A stretch of 33,724 nucleotides of DNA from a virus (lineage: Duplodnaviria; Heunggongvirae; Uroviricota; Caudoviricetes), in the IMG/VR virus record IMGVR_UViG_2531839144_000010. One strand, written 5' to 3'. Position 1 is the first letter of the stretch, and every line of letters starts with the position of its first letter. Positions 1,756 through 32,821 of the stretch are shown in pieces. The notes under the pieces were generated by a model, which made no database searches, had not been told where the DNA came from, and worked only from the letters and a program-made list of their open reading frames with translations. A program made the translations under genes and the position numbers.

Positions 1756-1926
1756 ATGAATGAGCCTCGTTGTATTGCTCAGTTATTGCGTAACGAAAGC
1801 CCCAGGGCGATTGACTTCACCATCACCCACGGTAAGGGGCGTAAGGGAATCATTATCCGCACCAAAAAACAGAGTCCGTTAAAAAAGGCTCTGACCTTTC
1901 TGAAAAGCCGGAGGGTATGGAAATGA
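1756..1926 (+). CDS. Small early protein of unknown function (position of P2 orf78)
   Basis: ATG at 1756 lies 3 nt after the cox stop; 56 aa; function not recognisable. Confidence 0.35.
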   Translation: MNEPRCIAQLLRNESPRAIDFTITHGKGRKGIIIRTKKQSPLKKALTFLKSRRVWK

Positions 1927-2423
1927 CAGTGATGACGCTCAATCTCGTTGAAAAACAGCCAGCAACTATGCGCCGGATAATTGGTAAGCATCTGGCCGTC
2001 CCTCGCTGGCAGGAGACATGCGATTATTATAATCAGATGATGGAACGCGAACGGCTAACGGTTTGCTTTCATGCGCAGTTAAAACAGCGTCACGCAACGA
2101 TGCGTTTTGAAGAAATGAACGACGTCGAACGTGAACGACTGGTATGTGCAATTGATGAATTGCGCGGGGCATTCTCAAAACGCCGTCAGGTTGGCGCAAG
2201 TGAGTATGCATATATTAGTTTTTTAACAGTCAGTCAGCGTCGCACTTTATTTATGCACGCACGACTGACAGAAAAAGAATTTAACCAGCCATACTGGCGA
2301 ATTAATGAAGAGTCATGTTACTGGCGTGATGCTTTATTCCGTGCATTACGTGAATTATTCAGCCTGTTTGAGTATGCACCGACAATTCTGACGTCGGTAA
2401 AACCAGAGCAATATCTGCATTAA
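1923..2423 (+). CDS. B: Replication protein B-like, 166 aa from the ATG at 1923
   Basis: Position between cox and A; size matches P2 B when started at 1923; overlaps the upstream ORF stop by 4 nt. The track start at 1917 would give 168 aa. Confidence 0.6.
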   Translation: MTVMTLNLVEKQPATMRRIIGKHLAVPRWQETCDYYNQMMERERLTVCFHAQLKQRHATMRFEEMNDVERERLVCAIDELRGAFSKRRQVGASEYAYISFLTVSQRRTLFMHARLTEKEFNQPYWRINEESCYWRDALFRALRELFSLFEYAPTILTSVKPEQYLH

Positions 2424-6148: not shown

Positions 6149-6910
6149 TCAATTGAGTATCGATTTTCGTTCGAATATAACCATAACGCCAAGCGTCAAA
6201 TATAAGTCATCTATATGTGATTCGTATTCATATTGGTCAGCATCAGGAGATAGTAAATGCTCTGCTGCTGTAAAAACATCAATTGTAACAGATATATCAT
6301 CTGGAATTTCTTTATTTAATTCATATATGTATTTTTTATATTTGTTTTTTAATTTCCTTATCATGTCTTCCTTATGGTGGATTGTAGTGCAGTAATTTTT
6401 TTTAGTTGAATCATTGTATGAATGGAATAAACAGTTTAATGCTAGTTCAAGGCTTGAACTCCCCGTAGGACCTGTGTGTTTAAAGTATTCAAGATTTCTT
6501 CTTATGTCAGAAAATAAAAGTTTTTTACTGGGGTTGTTTCCTTTAACTTCTATTGCACATATAGGAGTCTCGAAAAATGATCTACTGTCCAATATGGCAA
6601 TATCGATTCTGCCTGGTCTTTTTGTATTTGCATTTTTTCTGATAATGTGTCTTGAGAATATATTGTTGGGGTCATGCCGTTTCGATAAAGGGACTGTTGC
6701 ATTAATGAATTTATTTGTATGGTATTCAAATATGATCTTGTAATCACCATGATGAAAAGATGTTATTTTAATCAAGGATTGACCTATAGATACGGTAGCT
6801 ACATATTCAGTGTTTATTTTTCCACCGGAACTGAAATCCATTAAATAAGTAGCTTTGGCTGACTTTTGCATTCCAGCTTTTACGGCTTTCAAAATCTCCA
6901 TGTTATTCAT
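6149..6910 (-). CDS. Tin-like cargo protein, 253 aa, with a possible PD-(D/E)xK-like motif
   Basis: AT-rich minus-strand ORF at the position of P2 tin, next to old; segment GRIDIAILD...ICAIEVKG has D...E-x-K spacing reminiscent of restriction-endonuclease-fold proteins. Assignment is positional; the motif is unverified. Confidence 0.5.
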   Translation of the reverse strand: MNNMEILKAVKAGMQKSAKATYLMDFSSGGKINTEYVATVSIGQSLIKITSFHHGDYKIIFEYHTNKFINATVPLSKRHDPNNIFSRHIIRKNANTKRPGRIDIAILDSRSFFETPICAIEVKGNNPSKKLLFSDIRRNLEYFKHTGPTGSSSLELALNCLFHSYNDSTKKNYCTTIHHKEDMIRKLKNKYKKYIYELNKEIPDDISVTIDVFTAAEHLLSPDADQYEYESHIDDLYLTLGVMVIFERKSILN

Positions 6911-7093: not shown

Positions 7094-8854
7094 TTAAATC
7101 CATTTAATGAAATCTTCCATTTCATCATATTTTTTTATTACTGCTCTAACATCTTTGCTTTCATCACATAAACAATCTAAAAGACTATCCCATTCAGTTT
7201 GTTTTTTACCAAATCCATAAACAGCTTCTATATCACCGGATTTCCATATATAGATTCCATTATCTTTCAATTTTTGATGGATTTCATGTATATGTTTTTG
7301 TGTTTTTTCATGATTACATATTTTGATGAAGTCTTTGCTTGAAATGCTTTTGAATGACTCAAAAGTAGTGACTTTTGTATTTAAATTAAGCTCGCCTGAG
7401 TTGATTGATTCAGTCAAAGCAGTCAAGAGATTATCACATTCAGTACTAAGTAAGTCTTTATGCTCTGTTAATAGGATGTTTGATAAGAAATCACAATCAG
7501 CTAGAATTCTTGTTCTTATACCAATGGCATTGATGATTTGTGACATCTTAAATAAACTACCCTTACCGTCAACGGCAACAATGCAGATTTTACTTGGGTT
7601 GAGTTCATGTCCGTTAATTTTTTTATAAAGTGCATATAGGACGTTTGTCTCTGTTTTTCCTTCAACAAGCAAAACTTCTTCTGAAAATAAGAAATATGAT
7701 GAATTTGATAGTGTGAATGCTGAGTGCAATTGCGGTGATGAAGACTTATATAATTCTTCGATTTTTTCAGATATGGTCTTCCTTGCTATGGTTCCATTAG
7801 AATCCTTACAAACCTGAATCGCATTTGCTGCGTGCTTTGCAGAAAGCATACTGGCTGAGTGAGTTGATATTATAACCTGATACCCTGATTCACTTAATGT
7901 GACAAGTGATTCTCTGACAGAATTAATAGCTGAAGGGTGTAAATATAACTCAGGTTCATCAATGAAAATTAAAGTATTTGATTTTTTTGATTCGCTGTTT
8001 TCTTTTTTTATTTCGGCCAGGTATTGAATTAATGCCATTTGAATGGAACGTTGTGTTCCGTGACCAAATCGGCTGATATCTCTCATTACTGGTTCATCTT
8101 CCCGAGACTCAAAAACTTTCAGGGTTCCGGATTTAAATATTTCATCTAATGTCGGTGTGGGAAAGTGTAACTTTACACTTACGTCAGGAAAAAATTGGTT
8201 TACTTTTTTATTTACACCCGAGTCTATTTTATTAAGGCTTTCTAATCTGTTCTCACCGTTGTGAGAAAGATATTTACCTATTTCTGATATATTTTTTGAG
8301 AATTTCTCTTCGTGCTCTTGCTTTATTTCAGAAACAATTGCGGAAAGTATCTTTCCTATTGTGGTCGTATTTTTACATTTTGTTGAGTCTTCGACGGCGT
8401 CAGACATTGCAGGGATATGAATTGGTTCCGGAAATATATTGGAAATTGCACCATCTATGCCGCCAGGGTTTTTCTTCCACGTGGTGCCATCATATACATC
8501 CAGACTTTTTTTGACTTTTCCTGTTTCCTTATTAAATTCCTGTCTTCTTGCAAAGGTAAGAGTCCCGTCAATTATAAACGGAGCTATTTTTTGTTGATTC
8601 TCTTCTGTTAACAAAGACAGAGTATCATCTGTTATACCTTGAATAACGCCTTCAACGGATACGGGGTGTGTAGGATCGTACACATCTGATTCTGAAATCA
8701 AAGAGCCATCTAACAGCCACTTAATTGCTAAGATGATATTTGATTTTCCTGCGTTATTATAACCAACTAAAGCAGTAAAGGGGCGCAAAATAGCCGATGT
8801 TGCCTTACAAGAACGAAAGTTGCTAATTGAAACTGAAGCAAGACGTACAGTCAT
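7094..8854 (-). CDS. old: OLD-family nuclease (ABC-type ATPase + TOPRIM), 586 aa
   Basis: Walker A GYNNAGKS near the N-terminus, Walker B-like LIFIDEPELYLH, H-loop-like ISTHS, then a C-terminal TOPRIM-like region (LLVEGKTE ... IVAVDGKG); size and position match P2 old; AT-rich relative to flanks. Confidence 0.85.
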   Translation of the reverse strand: MTVRLASVSISNFRSCKATSAILRPFTALVGYNNAGKSNIILAIKWLLDGSLISESDVYDPTHPVSVEGVIQGITDDTLSLLTEENQQKIAPFIIDGTLTFARRQEFNKETGKVKKSLDVYDGTTWKKNPGGIDGAISNIFPEPIHIPAMSDAVEDSTKCKNTTTIGKILSAIVSEIKQEHEEKFSKNISEIGKYLSHNGENRLESLNKIDSGVNKKVNQFFPDVSVKLHFPTPTLDEIFKSGTLKVFESREDEPVMRDISRFGHGTQRSIQMALIQYLAEIKKENSESKKSNTLIFIDEPELYLHPSAINSVRESLVTLSESGYQVIISTHSASMLSAKHAANAIQVCKDSNGTIARKTISEKIEELYKSSSPQLHSAFTLSNSSYFLFSEEVLLVEGKTETNVLYALYKKINGHELNPSKICIVAVDGKGSLFKMSQIINAIGIRTRILADCDFLSNILLTEHKDLLSTECDNLLTALTESINSGELNLNTKVTTFESFKSISSKDFIKICNHEKTQKHIHEIHQKLKDNGIYIWKSGDIEAVYGFGKKQTEWDSLLDCLCDESKDVRAVIKKYDEMEDFIKWI

Positions 8855-20909: not shown

Positions 20910-23228
20910 ATGAGCACAAAATTCAGAACCGTTATCACCACTGCCGGTGCAGCAAAGCTGGCAGCGGCAACCGCACCGGGAGGGCGGAAGGTCAACATTA
21001 CCACGATGGCCGTCGGGGATGGCGGTGGTAAATTGCCTGTCCCGGATGCCGGACAGACCGGGCTTATCCACGAAGTCTGGCGACATACGCTGAACAAAAT
21101 CAGCCAGGACAAACGAAACAGTAATTATATTATCGCAGAGCTGGTTATTCCGCCGGAGGTGGGCGGTTTCTGGATGCGTGAGCTTGGCCTGTACGATGAT
21201 GCGGGAACGTTAATTGCCGTGGCGAACATGGCCGAAAGTTATAAGCCAGCTCTTGCCGAAGGCTCAGGGCGTTCGCAGACCTGTCGCATGGTCATCATCG
21301 TCAGCAGTGTGGCCTCGGTGGAGCTGACCATTGACACCACAACGGTGATGGCGACACAGGATTACGTTGATGACAAAATTGCAGAGCACGAACAGTCACG
21401 ACGTCACCCGGACGCCTCGCTGACCGCAAAAGGTTTTACTCAGTTAAGCAGTGCGACCAACAGCACGTCTGAAACACTGGCCGCAACGCCGAAAGCGGTA
21501 AAGGCCGCCTATGACCTTGCTAACGGGAAATATACCGCACAGGACGCTACCACAGCGCGAAAAGGTCTTGTCCAGCTCAGTAGTGCCACCAACAGCACGT
21601 CTGAAACGCTTGCGGCAACGCCAAAGGCGGTTAAGACAGCGTATGACCTTGCTAACGGGAAATACACTGCACAGGACGCCACTACAGCGCGAAAAGGTCT
21701 TGTCCAGCTCAGTAGCGCCACCAACAGCGATTCTGAAACGCTTGCGGCAACACCAAAGGCGGTTAAGACAGCGTATGACCTTGCTAACGGGAAATACACT
21801 GCACAGGATGCCACCACGGCGCGAAAAGGTCTTGTCCAGCTCAGTAGCGCCACCAACAGTGATTCTGAAACCCTCGCGGCAACGCCAAAAGCAGTGAAGT
21901 CTGCCTATGACAATGCTGAAAAACGTCTTCAGAAAGATCAGAACGGTGCGGATATTCCGGGAAAGGATACCTTCACGAAAAATATCGGTGCCTGTCGTGC
22001 TTATAGCGGCGCTTTGAGCACTGAAGCCGGAAACTGGACAACCGCTCAGTTTATTGAATGGCTGGATTCCCGTGGTGCATTTAATCATCCGTACTGGATG
22101 TGCAAAGGCTCCTGGTCATATGCAAATAACAAAATCATTACGGATACCGGATGTGGTGATATCCACCTGGCTGGTTGTGTCGTCGAGGTCATGGGAACTA
22201 AATCTGCAATCACTATCCGAGTGACCACGCCGACAACATCAAGTGGTGGCGGTACAACCAGCGCGCAATTCACTTACATTAATCATGGGGACGGCTACTC
22301 CCCCGGCTGGCGTCGTGACTGGAATCGTCAGGGCGACTCAATGACCGGAACGATTAATCAGGATGGCGGAAGCCAGAATGCCTATATGTCTACGGCCTTA
22401 TGTTCAGGCACCAGAGGCGGCAAAAAATATCTCAGAAAGTTTCGTGGTGGAGAAGGAGACACTATCTGGCATGAAACAGTACAGGGCGGGGTAGTTCGCT
22501 GGGCGACTGGTAATACTGATGCTCAGGAAGAATTATCACTCAGCTCCGCTTATGGTCTCCGTTCAAGAGGTGAGATTACATCAAGCAGTGCTAATGGTCT
22601 GCGCATTGCTTATGGCAATTATGGATTCTTTATCAGGAATGATGGCAGCAGCACTTATTTTATGTTGACTAAATCAGGTGACAGATTAGGCACTTATAAT
22701 AATTTAAGACCACTGATTATAAATGATGCCACGGGTGCTGTATCAATGGGGCATGGCCTGAGTGTTACTGGTGAAATTGCCTCAAGTACCAAAGTACGTG
22801 CCGGTAGCGGGAAAAAATTCACGGTCAGCAGCAGTAATACATCCACGAAGGAAGCCGCATTCAATTTGTGGGGAAACTCAAGTCGTCCTGTGGTGGCTGA
22901 ATTAGGTGATGATGCAGGCTGGCATTTTTACAGTCAGAGAAATACAGATAACAGCATCACTTTTGCTGTTAACGGGCAGGTATCACCATCTAACTATAGT
23001 AATTTTGATTCACGCTATGTCCGGGATATCCGGCTTGGTGGTGCTGCCACATACAAACCTGCGAACAATGGCATGACATGGACACATCAGGCACCGTCCG
23101 GGTGTGTATATTCCGGCATTATTGTTCAGGATACCGGCTCAAACTCTGCCGATAACATTGGTGGCGTATATTACAGACCGATTCAGAAATACATTAACGG
23201 GATATGGTATAACGTGGCGCAGGTATAA
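20910..23228 (+). CDS. H: Tail fibre protein H, 772 aa, with internal tandem repeats
   Basis: Conserved N-terminal baseplate-attachment region, then about 3.7 copies of a 44-aa fibre repeat, then a variable C-terminal receptor-binding part. Confidence 0.85.
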   Translation: MSTKFRTVITTAGAAKLAAATAPGGRKVNITTMAVGDGGGKLPVPDAGQTGLIHEVWRHTLNKISQDKRNSNYIIAELVIPPEVGGFWMRELGLYDDAGTLIAVANMAESYKPALAEGSGRSQTCRMVIIVSSVASVELTIDTTTVMATQDYVDDKIAEHEQSRRHPDASLTAKGFTQLSSATNSTSETLAATPKAVKAAYDLANGKYTAQDATTARKGLVQLSSATNSTSETLAATPKAVKTAYDLANGKYTAQDATTARKGLVQLSSATNSDSETLAATPKAVKTAYDLANGKYTAQDATTARKGLVQLSSATNSDSETLAATPKAVKSAYDNAEKRLQKDQNGADIPGKDTFTKNIGACRAYSGALSTEAGNWTTAQFIEWLDSRGAFNHPYWMCKGSWSYANNKIITDTGCGDIHLAGCVVEVMGTKSAITIRVTTPTTSSGGGTTSAQFTYINHGDGYSPGWRRDWNRQGDSMTGTINQDGGSQNAYMSTALCSGTRGGKKYLRKFRGGEGDTIWHETVQGGVVRWATGNTDAQEELSLSSAYGLRSRGEITSSSANGLRIAYGNYGFFIRNDGSSTYFMLTKSGDRLGTYNNLRPLIINDATGAVSMGHGLSVTGEIASSTKVRAGSGKKFTVSSSNTSTKEAAFNLWGNSSRPVVAELGDDAGWHFYSQRNTDNSITFAVNGQVSPSNYSNFDSRYVRDIRLGGAATYKPANNGMTWTHQAPSGCVYSGIIVQDTGSNSADNIGGVYYRPIQKYINGIWYNVAQV
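21429..21915 (+). repeat. In-frame 132-bp tandem repeat array inside H (units start at 21429, 21561, 21693, 21825)
   Basis: Direct repeats read from the sequence; each encodes KGLVQLSSATNS(T/D)SETLAATPKAVK(T/A)AYDLANGKYTAQDATTAR. Confidence 0.9.
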
Positions 23229-23231
23229 TTT

Positions 23232-23759
23232 ATGCAGCATTTGATAAATATAACGGCAGGTAATCCAAAAACGGTTGAACAATATCAATTGACAAAGGAC
23301 TTTGATGTTGTCTGGTTTTTTTCAGAAGATGGTAAGAACTGGTACGAAGAACAAAAGTATTTTGCTGATGACACGATAAAAATAGCGTACGACAAAGATA
23401 ATATCATCCGCTATGTGGAAAAGGATGTGACAGCTATCAGACCGGATGGATTAAGTGTGGTTGAAGTGGCGGATATTACTGCTAACCGACGGGCGGATAT
23501 TTCAGGGGGCTGGATGTTTAAGGACGGCAAAGTGATTAAACGCATTTATACGACAGAGGAATTACAGCAGCAGGCAGAAATTCGGAAAGCCAGACTTCTT
23601 GCAGATGCTGAATCCGTGATTTTGCCGCTGGAGCGCGCGGTCAGACTGAACATGGCAACAGGTGAGGAGCGTAGCCGACTGGAAGCATGGGAACGCTACA
23701 GCGTTCTGGTCAGTCGTGTGGATCCTGCAAATCCTGAATGGCCGGAAATGCCGCAATAA
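23232..23759 (+). CDS. G: Tail fibre assembly chaperone G, 175 aa
   Basis: Size and position match P2 G; directly follows H. Confidence 0.8.
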
Positions 23760-24123
23760 GTTGTATGAGCTCTGGTGTGAGCTTACATATCTATGGCACA
23801 GAGTAAAGCCTAATCTGACAGTTCGCTCTGTGCCAGAAACAGACGTCACTTATATATTTCTTTATTAATCAATGAGGAAAGATTCAATTCTCTATAATGG
23901 AGGTTGCGTCCACTGTTTTCTCTAAGCAGACCAAGTTCCCTTAACGAAAAATTTAGTGTCAGAAAATAATATTGACAAAGAGGCAATGTTATATAGTATT
24001 AGTTTGATAACTAAAAATATAAGCCTGATTATCTCAAGCTTATATAGGTGATAAAGTTTCTAACTTAATTTGATTATAGAAGATACATTTCTTAATTATG
24101 ACGCATTGATAATGGATTCAACT

Positions 24124-25149
24124 TCATTCAATAATGTCTGGTAGAACATTAAATCCAGTTGGTCGAAAAAAGGATAATCTTTGCTGATGAGAAACTAAAT
24201 CTATCTTCACAATGTGATGATGGTTTTTTTTGATTTTTCTAGAGTACAATGAGTAAAAAAGATTTTCTGTGTTAATTTCCACAATGATTCCAGACATATC
24301 TAAGTCATAGCATTTTGCTAACGCTTTCAATTTTGGTGATATTTTGCTCTCTTTAAACTTTTCATTATATTCCGGTTGAAAATATCTTATCAAAGCGGCT
24401 TCGATTATATTAATGGCTTGATTTTTGTTTGGGTGATTTTTTAATGCAAACTTAAATCGCTTGTCATCGCTATCCGTATCATCAATTAATCCAGACCTCC
24501 CATCTAGAGATGAGAATACTTGTTCATGCTCAAAGGCATACATAAAAAGCATGATCTCTTGATCTGGCTTGTTATAAAGCGTTTGCGCCAATATTTTTTG
24601 TAATTTTGAATGACTCCTTAAACGTTCAACTGCATTCCTGCTACCATTTTTACCTACGGCTTGTCCAATATAAAGAACTTCATATGAGGACAGATCTGAA
24701 TAGTAACCTAATTTGCTTGAATATAAGGTGGCAATGAAAGATGCAGAGATGTAAGTTACCTCCTCCCCTTCATTATTTATACTAATAACTTCTCTGAATG
24801 GATAGTTACATATTACATTAGTTGCATCGTCTTCTAATATCCAGTTGTATTCAAAATGGAACTTGCTTTCTTTACCATCTATTTTGTACCCTATCTCTCC
24901 TGAGAGAATGTTTTTCTCATGATTAATTGTATTATCAATAAAATAAAAGCTTGGGCGAGCGCATATAAAGTATATATGGCATTTTGAAAGTTGTTTTTCT
25001 TGTTCTAAATTAATTTTTGCATCAGACGTTAGTTGCTGAGCAGTAAGCATCGCTGTAAAACTATTTAAGTATCCAAAAGCAAATTCGTGTATGAATTTTC
25101 TTTTCACTCGAAATATCCTCACTAGAAATGAATAATATTGGTTTTTCAT
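24124..25149 (-). CDS. AT-rich cargo protein at the Z/fun position, 341 aa, unknown function
   Basis: Sole ORF in the AT-rich 1.7-kb island between G and FI, opposite in orientation to the late operons; contains G-Y-Y (148-150), Y-I-G (160-162), R176 and E207/E209 in GIY-YIG-like spacing. Start codon uncertain (weak ribosome-binding site; next Met at residue 34). Confidence 0.6.
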   Translation of the reverse strand: MKNQYYSFLVRIFRVKRKFIHEFAFGYLNSFTAMLTAQQLTSDAKINLEQEKQLSKCHIYFICARPSFYFIDNTINHEKNILSGEIGYKIDGKESKFHFEYNWILEDDATNVICNYPFREVISINNEGEEVTYISASFIATLYSSKLGYYSDLSSYEVLYIGQAVGKNGSRNAVERLRSHSKLQKILAQTLYNKPDQEIMLFMYAFEHEQVFSSLDGRSGLIDDTDSDDKRFKFALKNHPNKNQAINIIEAALIRYFQPEYNEKFKESKISPKLKALAKCYDLDMSGIIVEINTENLFYSLYSRKIKKNHHHIVKIDLVSHQQRLSFFRPTGFNVLPDIIE

Positions 25150-25478
25150 GATAATACTCTATTGATCCTAGACTTACCATTTAAAAAACGAACTGACATG
25201 CTCCCGTTGATTAATAAGCTGTAAGGTTAGCAATTCTTTTGGCGTTGAGAACAACTGCGAACTTCCGTTCCTTGCTCAAAGCAGACTGTCAGATTTGATA
25301 GCGTTTGGGCTATGTAAGTAGCCAGTTGGAGAATGAGTGAGTGCAAATCAGGACTAACGGGCGAATTGCCCGCATTTTCTTTATCTGTTGTTTCATCCAC
25401 TGACCAGCCAGGTCAAATAGCGTCTCATGCACTGCCCAACAGAAAATAGTTGCACCCATTAACCACGGAGTTAAACGG

Positions 25479-26669
25479 ATGAGTGACTATCATCACGGCG
25501 TGCAGGTGCTGGAGATTAACGACGGCACCCGCGTCATTTCCACCGTATCCACGGCCATTGTCGGCATGGTCTGTACGGCCAGCGATGCGGATGCCGAAAC
25601 CTTCCCCCTCAATAAACCGGTACTGATTACCAATGTGCAGAGCGCAATTGCAAAGGCCGGTAAAAAAGGTACCCTGGCGGCGTCGTTGCAGGCCATCGCC
25701 GACCAGTCAAAACCGGTCACCGTTGTCGTGCGCGTGGAAGACGGCACCGGCGAAGACGAAGAAACGAAACTCGCGCAGACCGTTTCCAATATCATCGGCA
25801 CCACCGACGAAAACGGTCAGTACACCGGACTGAAAGCCCTGCTGGCGGCGGAGTCGGTAACCGGTGTTAAACCACGTATTCTCGGCGTACCGGGACTGGA
25901 CACCAAAGAGGTGGCTGTTGCACTGGCATCAGTCTGTCAGAAGCTGCGCGCTTTCGGGTATATCAGTGCATGGGGCTGTAAAACCATTTCCGAGGTGAAA
26001 GCTTACCGCCAGAATTTCAGCCAGCGTGAGCTGATGGTCATCTGGCCGGATTTCCTCGCATGGGATACGGTCACCAGTACCACCGCCACCGCGTATGCCA
26101 CCGCCCGTGCGCTGGGTCTGCGTGCCAAAATCGACCAGGAGCAGGGCTGGCATAAAACGCTGTCCAACGTCGGGGTGAACGGTGTTACCGGCATCAGCGC
26201 ATCTGTATTCTGGGATTTGCAGGAGTCCGGCACCGATGCTGACCTGCTTAACGAGTCAGGCGTCACTACGCTGATTCGCCGCGACGGTTTCCGATTCTGG
26301 GGTAACCGTACCTGCTCTGATGACCCGCTGTTCCTCTTTGAAAACTACACCCGCACCGCGCAGGTGCTGGCCGACACGATGGCTGAGGCGCACATGTGGG
26401 CGGTGGACAAGCCCATCACCGCAACGCTGATTCGCGACATCGTTGACGGCATCAATGCCAAATTCCGTGAGCTGAAAACAAACGGCTATATCGTGGATGC
26501 GACCTGCTGGTTCAGCGAAGAATCCAACGATGCGGAAACCCTCAAGGCCGGAAAACTGTATATCGACTACGACTATACACCGGTGCCTCCTCTTGAAAAC
26601 CTGACCCTGCGCCAGCGTATTACCGATAAATACCTGGCAAATCTGGTCACCTCGGTTAACAGCAATTAA
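25479..26669 (+). CDS. FI: Contractile tail sheath protein, 396 aa
   Basis: Size and position match P2 FI. Confidence 0.85.
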   Translation: MSDYHHGVQVLEINDGTRVISTVSTAIVGMVCTASDADAETFPLNKPVLITNVQSAIAKAGKKGTLAASLQAIADQSKPVTVVVRVEDGTGEDEETKLAQTVSNIIGTTDENGQYTGLKALLAAESVTGVKPRILGVPGLDTKEVAVALASVCQKLRAFGYISAWGCKTISEVKAYRQNFSQRELMVIWPDFLAWDTVTSTTATAYATARALGLRAKIDQEQGWHKTLSNVGVNGVTGISASVFWDLQESGTDADLLNESGVTTLIRRDGFRFWGNRTCSDDPLFLFENYTRTAQVLADTMAEAHMWAVDKPITATLIRDIVDGINAKFRELKTNGYIVDATCWFSEESNDAETLKAGKLYIDYDYTPVPPLENLTLRQRITDKYLANLVTSVNSN

Positions 26670-31781: not shown

Positions 31782-31862
31782 TGTTTTTATTTTATCTGTT
31801 TGTTTTATAAGGATAAATTAACTAAAATGGCACCATCAACAAAACCGGAAGAGGTGCTCGCG

Positions 31863-32081
31863 ATGTTTCATTGTCCTTTATGCCAGCATGCCGCACATGC
31901 GCGTACAAGCCGCTATATCACTGACACGACAAAAGAGCGTTATCACCAGTGCCAGAACGTGAATTGCAGCGCCACGTTCATCACTTATGAGTCGGTACAG
32001 CGATACATCGTGAAGCCGGGAGAAGTCCACGCCGTGAGGCCGCACCCGTTGCCGTCAGGGCAGCAAATTATGTGGATGTAA
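31863..32081 (+). CDS. ogr: Late-gene transcriptional activator Ogr (C4 zinc finger), 72 aa
   Basis: MFHCPLCQHAAHARTSRYITDTTKERYHQCQNVNCSATF... with a C-x2-C...C-x4-C zinc-binding motif; taking the ATG at 31863 gives 72 aa. Confidence 0.85.
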   Translation: MFHCPLCQHAAHARTSRYITDTTKERYHQCQNVNCSATFITYESVQRYIVKPGEVHAVRPHPLPSGQQIMWM

Positions 32082-32091
32082 TTACAAACAG

Positions 32092-32115
32092 AAAGCCCCG
32101 CAGTCGAGGGGCTTT
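32092..32115. terminator. Bidirectional rho-independent terminator shared by ogr (+) and the convergent 133-aa gene (-)
   Basis: AAAGCCCC-GCAGTCGA-GGGGCTTT hairpin with T-rich sequence on both sides (CAACTTTATTT on the plus strand). Confidence 0.65.
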
Positions 32116-32132
32116 CAACTTTATTTAGGAGC

Positions 32133-32534
32133 TTATTTCCCTGTGTAAAGACGTGTTTGGGATGAAAGTAACACTTGCCCCTGTTTAGGCGTCAACGAAC
32201 CTATTTCATTGCATGTTTTTAATGGTTCGAAAAAAACATAACCGATGGATTTATATTGATTAACTATGCTTATTTCTTTGATTTTTTTGAGATATGAAGC
32301 AGGCGTGTCTTTTGTCCAGACTGGTGTGCATACACCGGTCATAATCAGGTTGCTGTAGGCGTCAGGGGCGATTTCTTTGCCAGGAAGTACCACCGTAAGC
32401 GAGTTGTTTTTATTCGTGATTTCTAGGGGTTGCCATGGTTTAAGCTGCTTTTGAAGGGTTTTAATATCATTCGCGTTTGCGTTGAGCGAAATTATTAAGG
32501 TGGCTATTGCCATCACTGATTTAAGAGTTGCCAT
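32133..32534 (-). CDS. Secreted small protein of unknown function, 133 aa, signal peptide, two Cys
   Basis: N-terminal signal peptide MATLKSVMAIATLIISLNANA with an AxA cleavage motif; AT-rich codon usage unlike both phage backbone and fieF; bracketed by two similar hairpins. Confidence 0.6.
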   Translation of the reverse strand: MATLKSVMAIATLIISLNANANDIKTLQKQLKPWQPLEITNKNNSLTVVLPGKEIAPDAYSNLIMTGVCTPVWTKDTPASYLKKIKEISIVNQYKSIGYVFFEPLKTCNEIGSLTPKQGQVLLSSQTRLYTGK

Positions 32535-32594
32535 GGAAAATCCTTAATAAACATTTGGTTGAGTAAAATTCATACCTCCAAAAAAAGGAAAAAT

Positions 32595-32619
32595 AAAGCC
32601 CCATGTGCTTAGGGGCTTT
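32595..32619 (-). terminator. Hairpin plus T-tract on the minus strand, upstream of the 133-aa gene
   Basis: AAAGCCCC-ATGTGCTTA-GGGGCTTT; on the minus strand it is followed by ATTTTTCCTTTTTTT; the stem is identical to the hairpin at 32092-32115. Confidence 0.45.
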
Positions 32620-32713
32620 CAGTAGTCGATGTGGACGCTATGTGGACAGCGTTTGACATAAATCCATTTATATCATCAGGTTAGGTGCTTTTTTGTGACA
32701 CCATCCCTGTCTT

Positions 32714-32740
32714 CCCCCACATGATGTGGGGGTTTTTTTT
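32714..32740 (+). terminator. Rho-independent terminator of the host gene originally upstream of fieF
   Basis: CCCCCACA-TGA-TGTGGGGG followed by T8; no plus-strand gene precedes it within the window, consistent with a host terminator separated from its gene by the prophage. Confidence 0.55.
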
Positions 32741-32821
32741 ATCCTCAATTTGCCTGCTGCTTAATGCATTGCAGATGATTTGCTTCCGTTATACTACCGT
32801 CAGTTGATAGCGGGAGTATTT

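Follow-up and report, generated by a model that had tools for sequence, protein, structure and literature searches.

CMoRE/PD-T4-3 is a single-protein GIY-YIG type IV restriction endonuclease that acts against phage DNA carrying 5-hydroxymethylcytosine (5hmC) or glucosylated hydroxymethylcytosine (ghmC) (PDB 9u75; PMC12923530). A negatively charged loop blocks its active site, and removal of the loop renders the enzyme toxic (PMC12923530). PD-Lambda-1 and Uzume are also single-gene systems reported with GIY-YIG (bioRxiv 10.1101/2024.10.26.620412). In phage P2, the fun locus is a second defence hotspot and is home to three validated systems of Vassallo et al. 2022 (PMC9519451), and a 2026 survey describes defence hotspots within P2 tail genes (PMC13586616). 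Here, we focused on the cargo at the fun locus of IMG/VR record IMGVR_UViG_2531839144_000010, a stretch of 33,724 nucleotides that we call the window. The window is a complete P2-like prophage (integrase, 1-1011; Ogr, 31800-32081; host cation-efflux gene from 32780), in which a single cargo gene separates the tail fibre assembly gene G from the tail sheath gene FI. The cargo protein appears to carry a complete set of GIY-YIG catalytic residues, with the GIY half of the motif parted from the YIG half by an inserted domain.

Residues are numbered on a 327-amino acid (aa) form of the cargo protein; adding 14 converts them to the 341-aa numbering of an earlier note on this DNA. Conservation was read from an alignment of 110 sequences with 23-54% identity and confirmed with 238 sequences. 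Only eight columns are invariant: Y46, Y146, G148, R162, H166, E236, P245 and N248. Seven of these coincide with the GIY-YIG catalytic set; P245, the exception, is a residue of the Glu…Asn helix. The spacing between E236 and N248 is fixed at 12 residues, and in the GIY-YIG family a conserved Asn follows the Glu by about 12 residues. When aligned by profile, the family pattern vEAaLIrYFqPeYN fell over E76…N88 of UvrC (E ~0.1). Structures of Hpy188I with DNA indicate that catalysis needs the GIY tyrosine as general base and a spatially invariant Tyr or His as proton shuttle; GIY-YIG catalysis also needs the YIG tyrosine and glycine, an arginine and a metal-anchoring glutamate (PMC3045582). In the cargo protein, Y46 would be the general base, E236 would bind the metal, and Y146, G148, R162, H166 and N248 would complete the active site. 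The earlier note had guessed at a GIY-YIG-type nuclease, a guess supported by the fold search described below, by the alignment to the Glu…Asn helix of UvrC, and by the agreement of the invariant residues (bar P245) with the catalytic set. Its Y160-I-G162 and Arg176, which are Y146-I-G148 and R162 here, proved to be 100% conserved. Its remaining assignments were chance matches: the G148-Y-Y150 taken for the GIY half falls in columns gapped in ~60% of the family, and just 35% of members have Glu at position 207 and 10% at position 209. In the 341-aa numbering, the conserved GIY tyrosine is Y60 (Y46 here), and E250 and N262 are the Glu and Asn that the family keeps. We conclude from the alignments that the GIY-YIG catalytic set of the family is complete and is under strong purifying selection.

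Y46 belongs to a strand with the family pattern cHIYxI. The distance from Y46 to Y146 is 92-113 residues, with a median of 100 (244 members). In a typical GIY-YIG protein the halves are parted by a short hairpin of about 10-11 residues, which is longer in some restriction enzymes; the separation in Eco29kI is about 27 residues. Short spacings are found in CMoRE (Y17/Y19-Y31; PMC12923530) and in Hpy188I (Tyr63/Lys73, 10 residues; PMC3045582). At 92-113 residues, the cargo family does not have the short hairpin of the superfamily, and the earlier note was wrong to call the spacing typical, since YIG is preceded by the GIY tyrosine at a distance of ~100 residues. We tested the topology by mean-field direct-coupling analysis (DCA) of 238 sequences (effective number, Meff, 204) against three column-shuffle nulls, which ignore phylogeny. 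F47-I147 was the second strongest long-range coupling, scoring 1.92 compared with null maxima of 1.24-1.58. A50-E143 ranked 7th, A50-Q183 9th, R51-E184 15th and I48-L187 16th, and the block of residues 43-53 x 182-192 held 7 of the top 100 couplings, where 0.23 were expected. The couplings form two antiparallel ladders, which give strand 45-52 the YIG strand (141-149) on one side and strand 183-191 on the other. We conclude that the coevolution pattern describes the GIY-YIG beta2-beta1-beta3 sheet, apparently split by an insertion, and that Y46 would be close in three dimensions to the other catalytic residues. The protein has the fold feature of the superfamily, which is an alpha/beta arrangement with a central three-stranded antiparallel beta2-beta1-beta3 sheet flanked by helices. 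Strand 116-121, with Tyr119, was considered as the GIY strand and rejected, Tyr119 being only 28% conserved and the strand showing no coevolution with the core; strand 113-122 had no coupling to either partner strand among the top 327 DCA couplings.

When the insert was modelled alone, the predicted local distance difference test score (pLDDT) was 92, and we conclude that the inserted segment of ~95 residues is, as modelled, mostly an autonomous small beta-domain. It has weak DUF971-like similarity only and no resemblance to known modified-base readers. Strong couplings were also detected for Y13-I235, A23-L173, F11-M271, A238-V276 and S141-S286, and these indicate that the N-terminal arm and the C-terminal strands pack on the core. 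The flanks that had been taken for separate uncharacterised regions are in fact parts of one compact enlarged nuclease core, to which one inserted domain is added. A survey of GIY-YIG proteins describes a restriction-enzyme branch in which the core is enlarged by insertions and terminal extensions, without separate DNA-binding domains (PMC1564403). EndoII and Eco29kI were the best matches in our fold search, which fits a restriction-enzyme-style enlarged core. We conclude that the architecture is that of restriction enzymes and not that of homing enzymes. The core also holds a low-confidence loop, residues 203-217, that is variable in sequence and acidic across the family: D and E make up 27% of its residues compared with 13% overall, and at least 3 acidic residues are present in 91% of members.

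Databases gave this family many members and no name. A word-indexed search returned 139 relatives, every one labelled "hypothetical". An exhaustive profile search returned 1,315 clusters (50% identity) at E <= 1e-3 and 562 at E <= 1e-30, nearly all of 300-345 aa and matched end to end. A strict peptide pattern had 109 matches across 185,579 species genomes, in Proteobacteria, Bacteroidota, Planctomycetota, Cyanobacteria, Actinomycetota, Bacillota, Acidobacteriota, Verrucomicrobiota and candidate phyla radiation (CPR) bacteria; the family thus ranges from E. coli to Streptomyces, Bacteroidota, Cyanobacteria and CPR bacteria. The window protein is 99% identical to a 100-sequence cluster (P0001). 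Some members are extended at the N-terminus; none of these has an extra domain, and the extensions look like over-called starts. Searches of Pfam, NCBIfam and PADLOC with the cargo protein gave no significant match, and PADLOC none at E <= 10. Below threshold, Pfam and NCBIfam models of Eco29kI (E 0.21) and UvrC (E 0.15) matched residues ~210-260, and PDB profile searches with 37- and 110-sequence alignments recovered only the UvrC/Eco29kI Glu…Asn helix (E 0.08-1.5). When the family was scanned against Pfam, 2 of 110 members touched GIY_YIG_2 (E ~2e-3), and there was no other transitive link. In PHROGs, the protein belongs to an unannotated family, phrog_15714, which covers residues 34-341 of the 341-aa open reading frame (ORF). 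Foldseek against the viral structures of BFVD gave nothing at E <= 1e-3. We also found no paper on the family in a literature search by RefSeq accession and for single-gene GIY-YIG defence systems. The comparison to P2 Fun(Z) proposed in the earlier note came out empty, as tblastn against 50,697 deposited phage genomes, P2 included, gave no match at E <= 1e-3.

One branch of the family departs from the catalytic pattern. In Priestia, 27 plasmids carry a divergent relative of 289 aa directly after replication and "plasmid stabilization" genes, for example in the Priestia megaterium plasmid NZ_CP048892.1 (WP_180896789.1; locus L128:2174-3043). This relative keeps the split NIY…YIGQA layout and EAALINYFKPEYN. 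Its invariant Arg and His are replaced (…EELMSD…), and we therefore read the branch as probably catalytically dead, with a different role that is perhaps DNA-binding.

The cargo gene is solitary. No recurrent partner gene (methyltransferase, antitoxin or ATPase) emerged when 691 neighbours, taken within ±4 genes at ~97 loci of genomes and viruses, were clustered; the most recurrent neighbour family occurs in no more than 6 of the ~97 loci. We conclude that the gene has no conserved partner. Copies with 86-91% identity occupy five sites, one of which is the G/FI site of the window in E. coli. In Morganella, the copy follows ogr at the end of a P2-like prophage, and in Yersinia intermedia it adjoins AbiH and a DpnII-type enzyme. 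The remaining sites are in Klebsiella variicola (L125, 5001-5984), where the cassette lies at the P2 S/V locus in late-gene orientation, and in Enterobacter hormaechei (L123/L124, 5001-5984), where it lies right after lambdoid O/P, by BLUF-EAL, glyoxalase and DinI morons; both have 86-90% protein identity. This is a case of one cargo shuttling between unrelated phage types. More distant copies adjoin an OLD/AAA_15-type ATPase in Serratia and AAA_13 with DUF2971 in Pseudomonas, and lie near Cap15 with DACNG/DACNH, RelB and an integrase in Acinetobacter. In Paludibacterium the copy is in an integrase island at mnmE (trmE), and in Pseudomonas another is in the cargo region of an integrative and conjugative element (ICE). 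Plasmids and 24 IMG/VR viral contigs are further carriers. Among 148 immediate neighbours from 80 genomes were integrases, AlpA, Septu PtuA, SLFN-type helicases, ResIII, AAA_15/21 and a HEPN protein, along with many ordinary housekeeping genes, the family counts being without a background control.

At the locus itself, the late-gene backbone has a GC content of 0.55-0.60, which drops to 0.29-0.35 over ~23750-25250. The earlier note had described this as an AT-rich interruption of ~1.7 kb at 23760-25478. The low GC content between G and FI stands, and the interval was drawn too wide. We set the borders against P2-like phages with other cargo (Wphi, vB_EcoM-12474II and one E. coli prophage); backbone homology to these stops at ~23837-23846 and starts again at ~25259-25274, so the cargo proper spans ~23847-25258 (1.41 kb). 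Alternative cargos seen between G and FI include Wphi orf44, a 360-aa hypothetical protein, and a helix-turn-helix (HTH) protein with an acetyltransferase. The G and FI flanks are matched in 1,658 of 5,426 complete E. coli genomes and the cargo is present in just 6, at loci with 99.2-99.3% DNA identity. This is the behaviour of a hypervariable hotspot, and it agrees with the earlier assignment to the P2 Z/fun position, a described defence site (PMC9519451). The cargo DNA had no match among deposited phage records. The sole long ORF of the interval, 24124-25149 on the minus strand, runs against the late operons as previously noted. Its length of 341 aa probably needs correction: the GAGGA Shine-Dalgarno sequence, the RefSeq call of 327 aa and homologues of 327-329 aa indicate that the true start is probably GTG 25107, which gives 327 aa. 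A promoter scan of the minus strand upstream of the gene found nothing convincing. The coordinates of the features are collected in the table.

Table. Features of the cargo gene, its product and the G/FI locus (window coordinates; residues in the 327-aa numbering).
Feature	Position	Strand	Remarks
Cargo gene, 327-aa split GIY-YIG nuclease-like protein	24124-25107	-	Longest ORF reaches ATG 25149 (341 aa)
GAGGA Shine-Dalgarno	25116-25120	-	8 nt upstream of GTG 25107; read from sequence
H44-I45-Y46, "GIY" half-motif, strand beta1	24970-24978	-	Y46 100%, I45 92%, H44 86% conserved
Insert between GIY and YIG strands, small beta-domain and one helix	Residues 54-138, 24694-24948	-	
Y146-I-G148-Q149, "YIG" half-motif, strand beta2	24661-24672	-	Y146 and G148 100%, Q149 96% conserved
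R162-L-R-S-H166, putative catalytic Arg, and His in the Tyr/His proton-shuttle position	24610-24624	-	R162 and H166 100% conserved
Acidic low-confidence loop (…IDDTDSDD…) within the nuclease core	Residues 203-217, 24457-24501	-	pLDDT 56 for block 201-210
E236…N248 (EAALIRYFQPEYN), helix with putative metal-binding Glu, and conserved Asn	24364-24402	-	E236, P245 and N248 100% conserved
Terminator-like hairpin and T-run	24017-24045	-	~80 nt 3' of stop; consensus scan, weak: 2 such sites vs 1.3 expected
Variable AT-rich cargo segment, G/FI (Z/fun) hotspot	23847-25258, ~1.41 kb		Homology borders and GC 0.29-0.35
Left flank, tail fibre assembly gene G	23232-23759	+	Backbone; RefSeq annotation of 99.3%-identical locus
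FI upstream region, ~210 bp	25259-25478		Backbone too, by homology borders
Right flank, tail sheath gene FI	25479-26669	+	Backbone; RefSeq annotation

Several further observations were made in the prophage. An inverted repeat, GGCACAGAG…CTCTGTGCC, lies at 23797-23838, directly after G and within conserved backbone; the left cargo junction coincides with its end, and it may be the terminator of G or a recombination boundary. The second P2 hotspot, between A and Q, holds canonical Tin (6149-6910, minus strand; PADLOC E 8e-99) and Old (7094-8854, minus strand; PADLOC E 1e-214), so that the prophage pairs the classic tin/old of P2 with a non-P2 cargo at the fun locus. The tail fibre gene H (20910-23228, plus strand) contains ~4 tandem repeats of ~46 aa (…LSSATNS[TD]SETLAATPKAVKxAYDLANGKYTAQDATTARKGLVQ…), and GC content is 0.38-0.47 over ~22400-23450, which takes in the 3' portion of H together with the 5' portion of G; the repeats and the dip suggest a mosaic host-range module distinct from the cargo. 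At the right side, a host-type FieF-like cation-efflux gene begins at 32780 and runs off the window. Given this gene and the position of Ogr, the prophage right end falls within ~32100-32780. A 133-aa ORF at 32133-32534 (minus strand) occupies the position where the Morganella prophage holds its GIY-YIG cargo. Neither this ORF nor a 168-aa ORF of the early region (1917-2423, plus strand) had a Pfam or PADLOC match.

A potential model for the cargo protein is that of a stand-alone anti-phage GIY-YIG endonuclease, a restriction-like defence module of one gene, to which we give about an even chance of being right. It draws on the catalytic residue set, the split topology, the solitary state of the gene, its carriage on mobile elements and at a documented hotspot, and the precedent of CMoRE. 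The lysogen would make the protein from the cargo's own promoter, and the protein would cut the DNA of superinfecting phages. With neither a methyltransferase nor an antitoxin as partner, the enzyme would have to spare host and prophage DNA through a substrate requirement, through autoinhibition, or through both. Cleavage could need a base modification or a DNA structure specific to phages, which the insert and the extensions would read, or the acidic loop 203-217 could autoinhibit the enzyme until a substrate or trigger arrives. The loop, which recalls that of CMoRE, is thus a candidate gate. We infer nuclease activity, a role in defence, its target and the basis of self-sparing, and the abortive-infection or exclusion role suggested by the earlier note would follow from genomic position. 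Several points weigh against the model. The split motif is supported by coevolution and conservation, and the DCA null ignores phylogeny. No PADLOC model matches, the sequence links to GIY-YIG proteins are sub-threshold (E 0.08-0.2), and GIY_YIG_2 is touched by just 2 of 110 members at E ~2e-3. The neighbours are heterogeneous and many are housekeeping genes, so the association with defence islands, unquantified against a control, is suggestive. Finally, the insert is unlike any modified-base reader, which makes the self/non-self mechanism speculative.

The absence of an immunity partner at ~97 loci would also suit an abortive-infection toxin. Such a toxin would be kept inactive in the lysogen by the acidic loop or the insert, and a phage protein or other cue would activate it to degrade host and phage DNA and kill the cell before phage release. 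The acidic low-confidence loop in the core, analogous to the CMoRE loop whose removal causes toxicity, is consistent with this explanation, as are the classic abortive factors Old and Tin on the same prophage and the AbiH gene next to one close relative. We nonetheless consider it unlikely, because the search for a sensor-type domain (STAND, TPR, CARF etc.) found none, the insert being only weakly DUF971-like, and because the closest defence analogue, CMoRE, hits modified DNA directly and not by abortive infection. Nothing in the data separates such a toxin from direct restriction. A bolder proposal combines the insert and the acidic loop into an allosteric switch, a sensor built into the catalytic hairpin, and makes the cargo the founding member of a hitherto unrecognised, phylum-spanning group of one-protein immune nucleases. 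A phage ligand (modified base, DNA structure or phage protein) would bring Y46 into register with Y146, R162 and E236. We think this rather less likely again; if true, it would be a regulatory principle undescribed for any GIY-YIG enzyme.

Explanations that leave out defence have lower probability. The nuclease could serve its carrier's own life cycle, degrading host DNA as T4 EndoII does or acting in repair or recombination like UvrC or Slx1. This is improbable: the gene opposes the late operons within an exchangeable AT-rich hotspot cassette, it is found in non-phage contexts as well (ICE, chromosomal islets, defence islands), and the lack of any tblastn match in 50,697 deposited phage genomes means that it is dispensable for P2-like phages. 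By a shade less probable is a selfish, free-standing homing endonuclease that would cut cargo-less relatives and spread by repair copying, with no benefit to the host. Site-specific homing does not fit copies of 86-91% identity that sit at five or more unrelated places in elements of different types, and no NUMOD or HTH DNA-binding tail was found. In build the protein follows restriction enzymes, with an insertion and extensions, instead of the two-domain homing type (PMC1564403). Moreover, just 6 of ~1,658 E. coli genomes with the G/FI junction have the cargo, and the site hosts many unrelated cargos. That the gene is a catalytically dead or decaying remnant, functionless in the prophage, could be argued from the lack of a convincing minus-strand promoter in the upstream scan and from the probably inactive Priestia branch. 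We regard a remnant as the least credible explanation, since the reading frame is intact with a good Shine-Dalgarno sequence, all family-invariant catalytic residues are kept, the protein is 99% identical to a 100-sequence cluster, and the DNA of the six E. coli loci shows 99.2-99.3% identity.

Should the stand-alone endonuclease prove protective, a widespread family of ~1,300 clusters, missed as "hypothetical" by Pfam, NCBIfam and PADLOC, would be added to the defence catalogue. The split motif, if correct, would mean that the GIY-YIG hairpin, normally of ~10 residues, accepts a whole domain between its catalytic strands, which bears on nuclease gating and on GIY-YIG engineering. Nucleases that work as one protein without a partner and carry their own specificity, as CMoRE does for 5hmC, have found use as reagents. 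For P2 biology, a single cassette can be traced across three or more P2 hotspots as well as one lambdoid phage.

Compared with known systems, the cargo protein is most similar in kind to CMoRE/PD-T4-3. Each is a single GIY-YIG protein, and the conserved acidic loop of the cargo family (203-217) may be a counterpart of the inhibitory loop of CMoRE. In contrast to CMoRE, the cargo protein has no PADLOC match at E <= 10 and its domain order differs: CMoRE has an N-terminal GIY-YIG domain with the motif GIYxY-YIG plus, at the C-terminus, a domain that senses modification, whereas position 48 of the cargo protein is Ile or Val and not Tyr. PD-Lambda-1 and Uzume differ in the same respect, as the cargo protein matches no PADLOC family at E <= 10. 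The enlarged-core enzymes T4 endonuclease II (2wsh), R.Eco29kI (3mx4) and R.Hpy188I are comparators in structure, with sequence similarity below threshold (E 0.2-1.5). Type II GIY-YIG restriction-modification systems differ in that a cognate methyltransferase adjoins none of the ~97 loci, and the flanks in the window are G and FI. P2 Fun(Z) shares the G/FI locus, an AT-rich exchangeable cassette at a known anti-phage site, but is a different protein family without sequence similarity detectable by tblastn. The UvrC N-terminal domain (1ycz/1yd0) is a compact 90-residue module in a multi-domain repair protein, whereas the cargo, a lone protein of 327 aa whose motif is split, is carried on mobile elements. 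Unlike homing endonucleases, it was not found to have a C-terminal NUMOD/HTH region, and near-identical copies occur at five sites.

Taken together, we conclude that the cargo protein belongs to the GIY-YIG superfamily, has all of the catalytic-residue features, lacks the short hairpin and escapes the curated sequence models. It is not CMoRE/PD-T4-3, PD-Lambda-1, Uzume, Fun(Z), a homing endonuclease or a type II restriction-modification enzyme. Its family is unannotated, widespread and single-gene, the GIY-YIG site being complete and split by an inserted domain, and it is found here in a documented defence hotspot. These properties make the cargo gene a good candidate for a new one-protein phage-defence nuclease.

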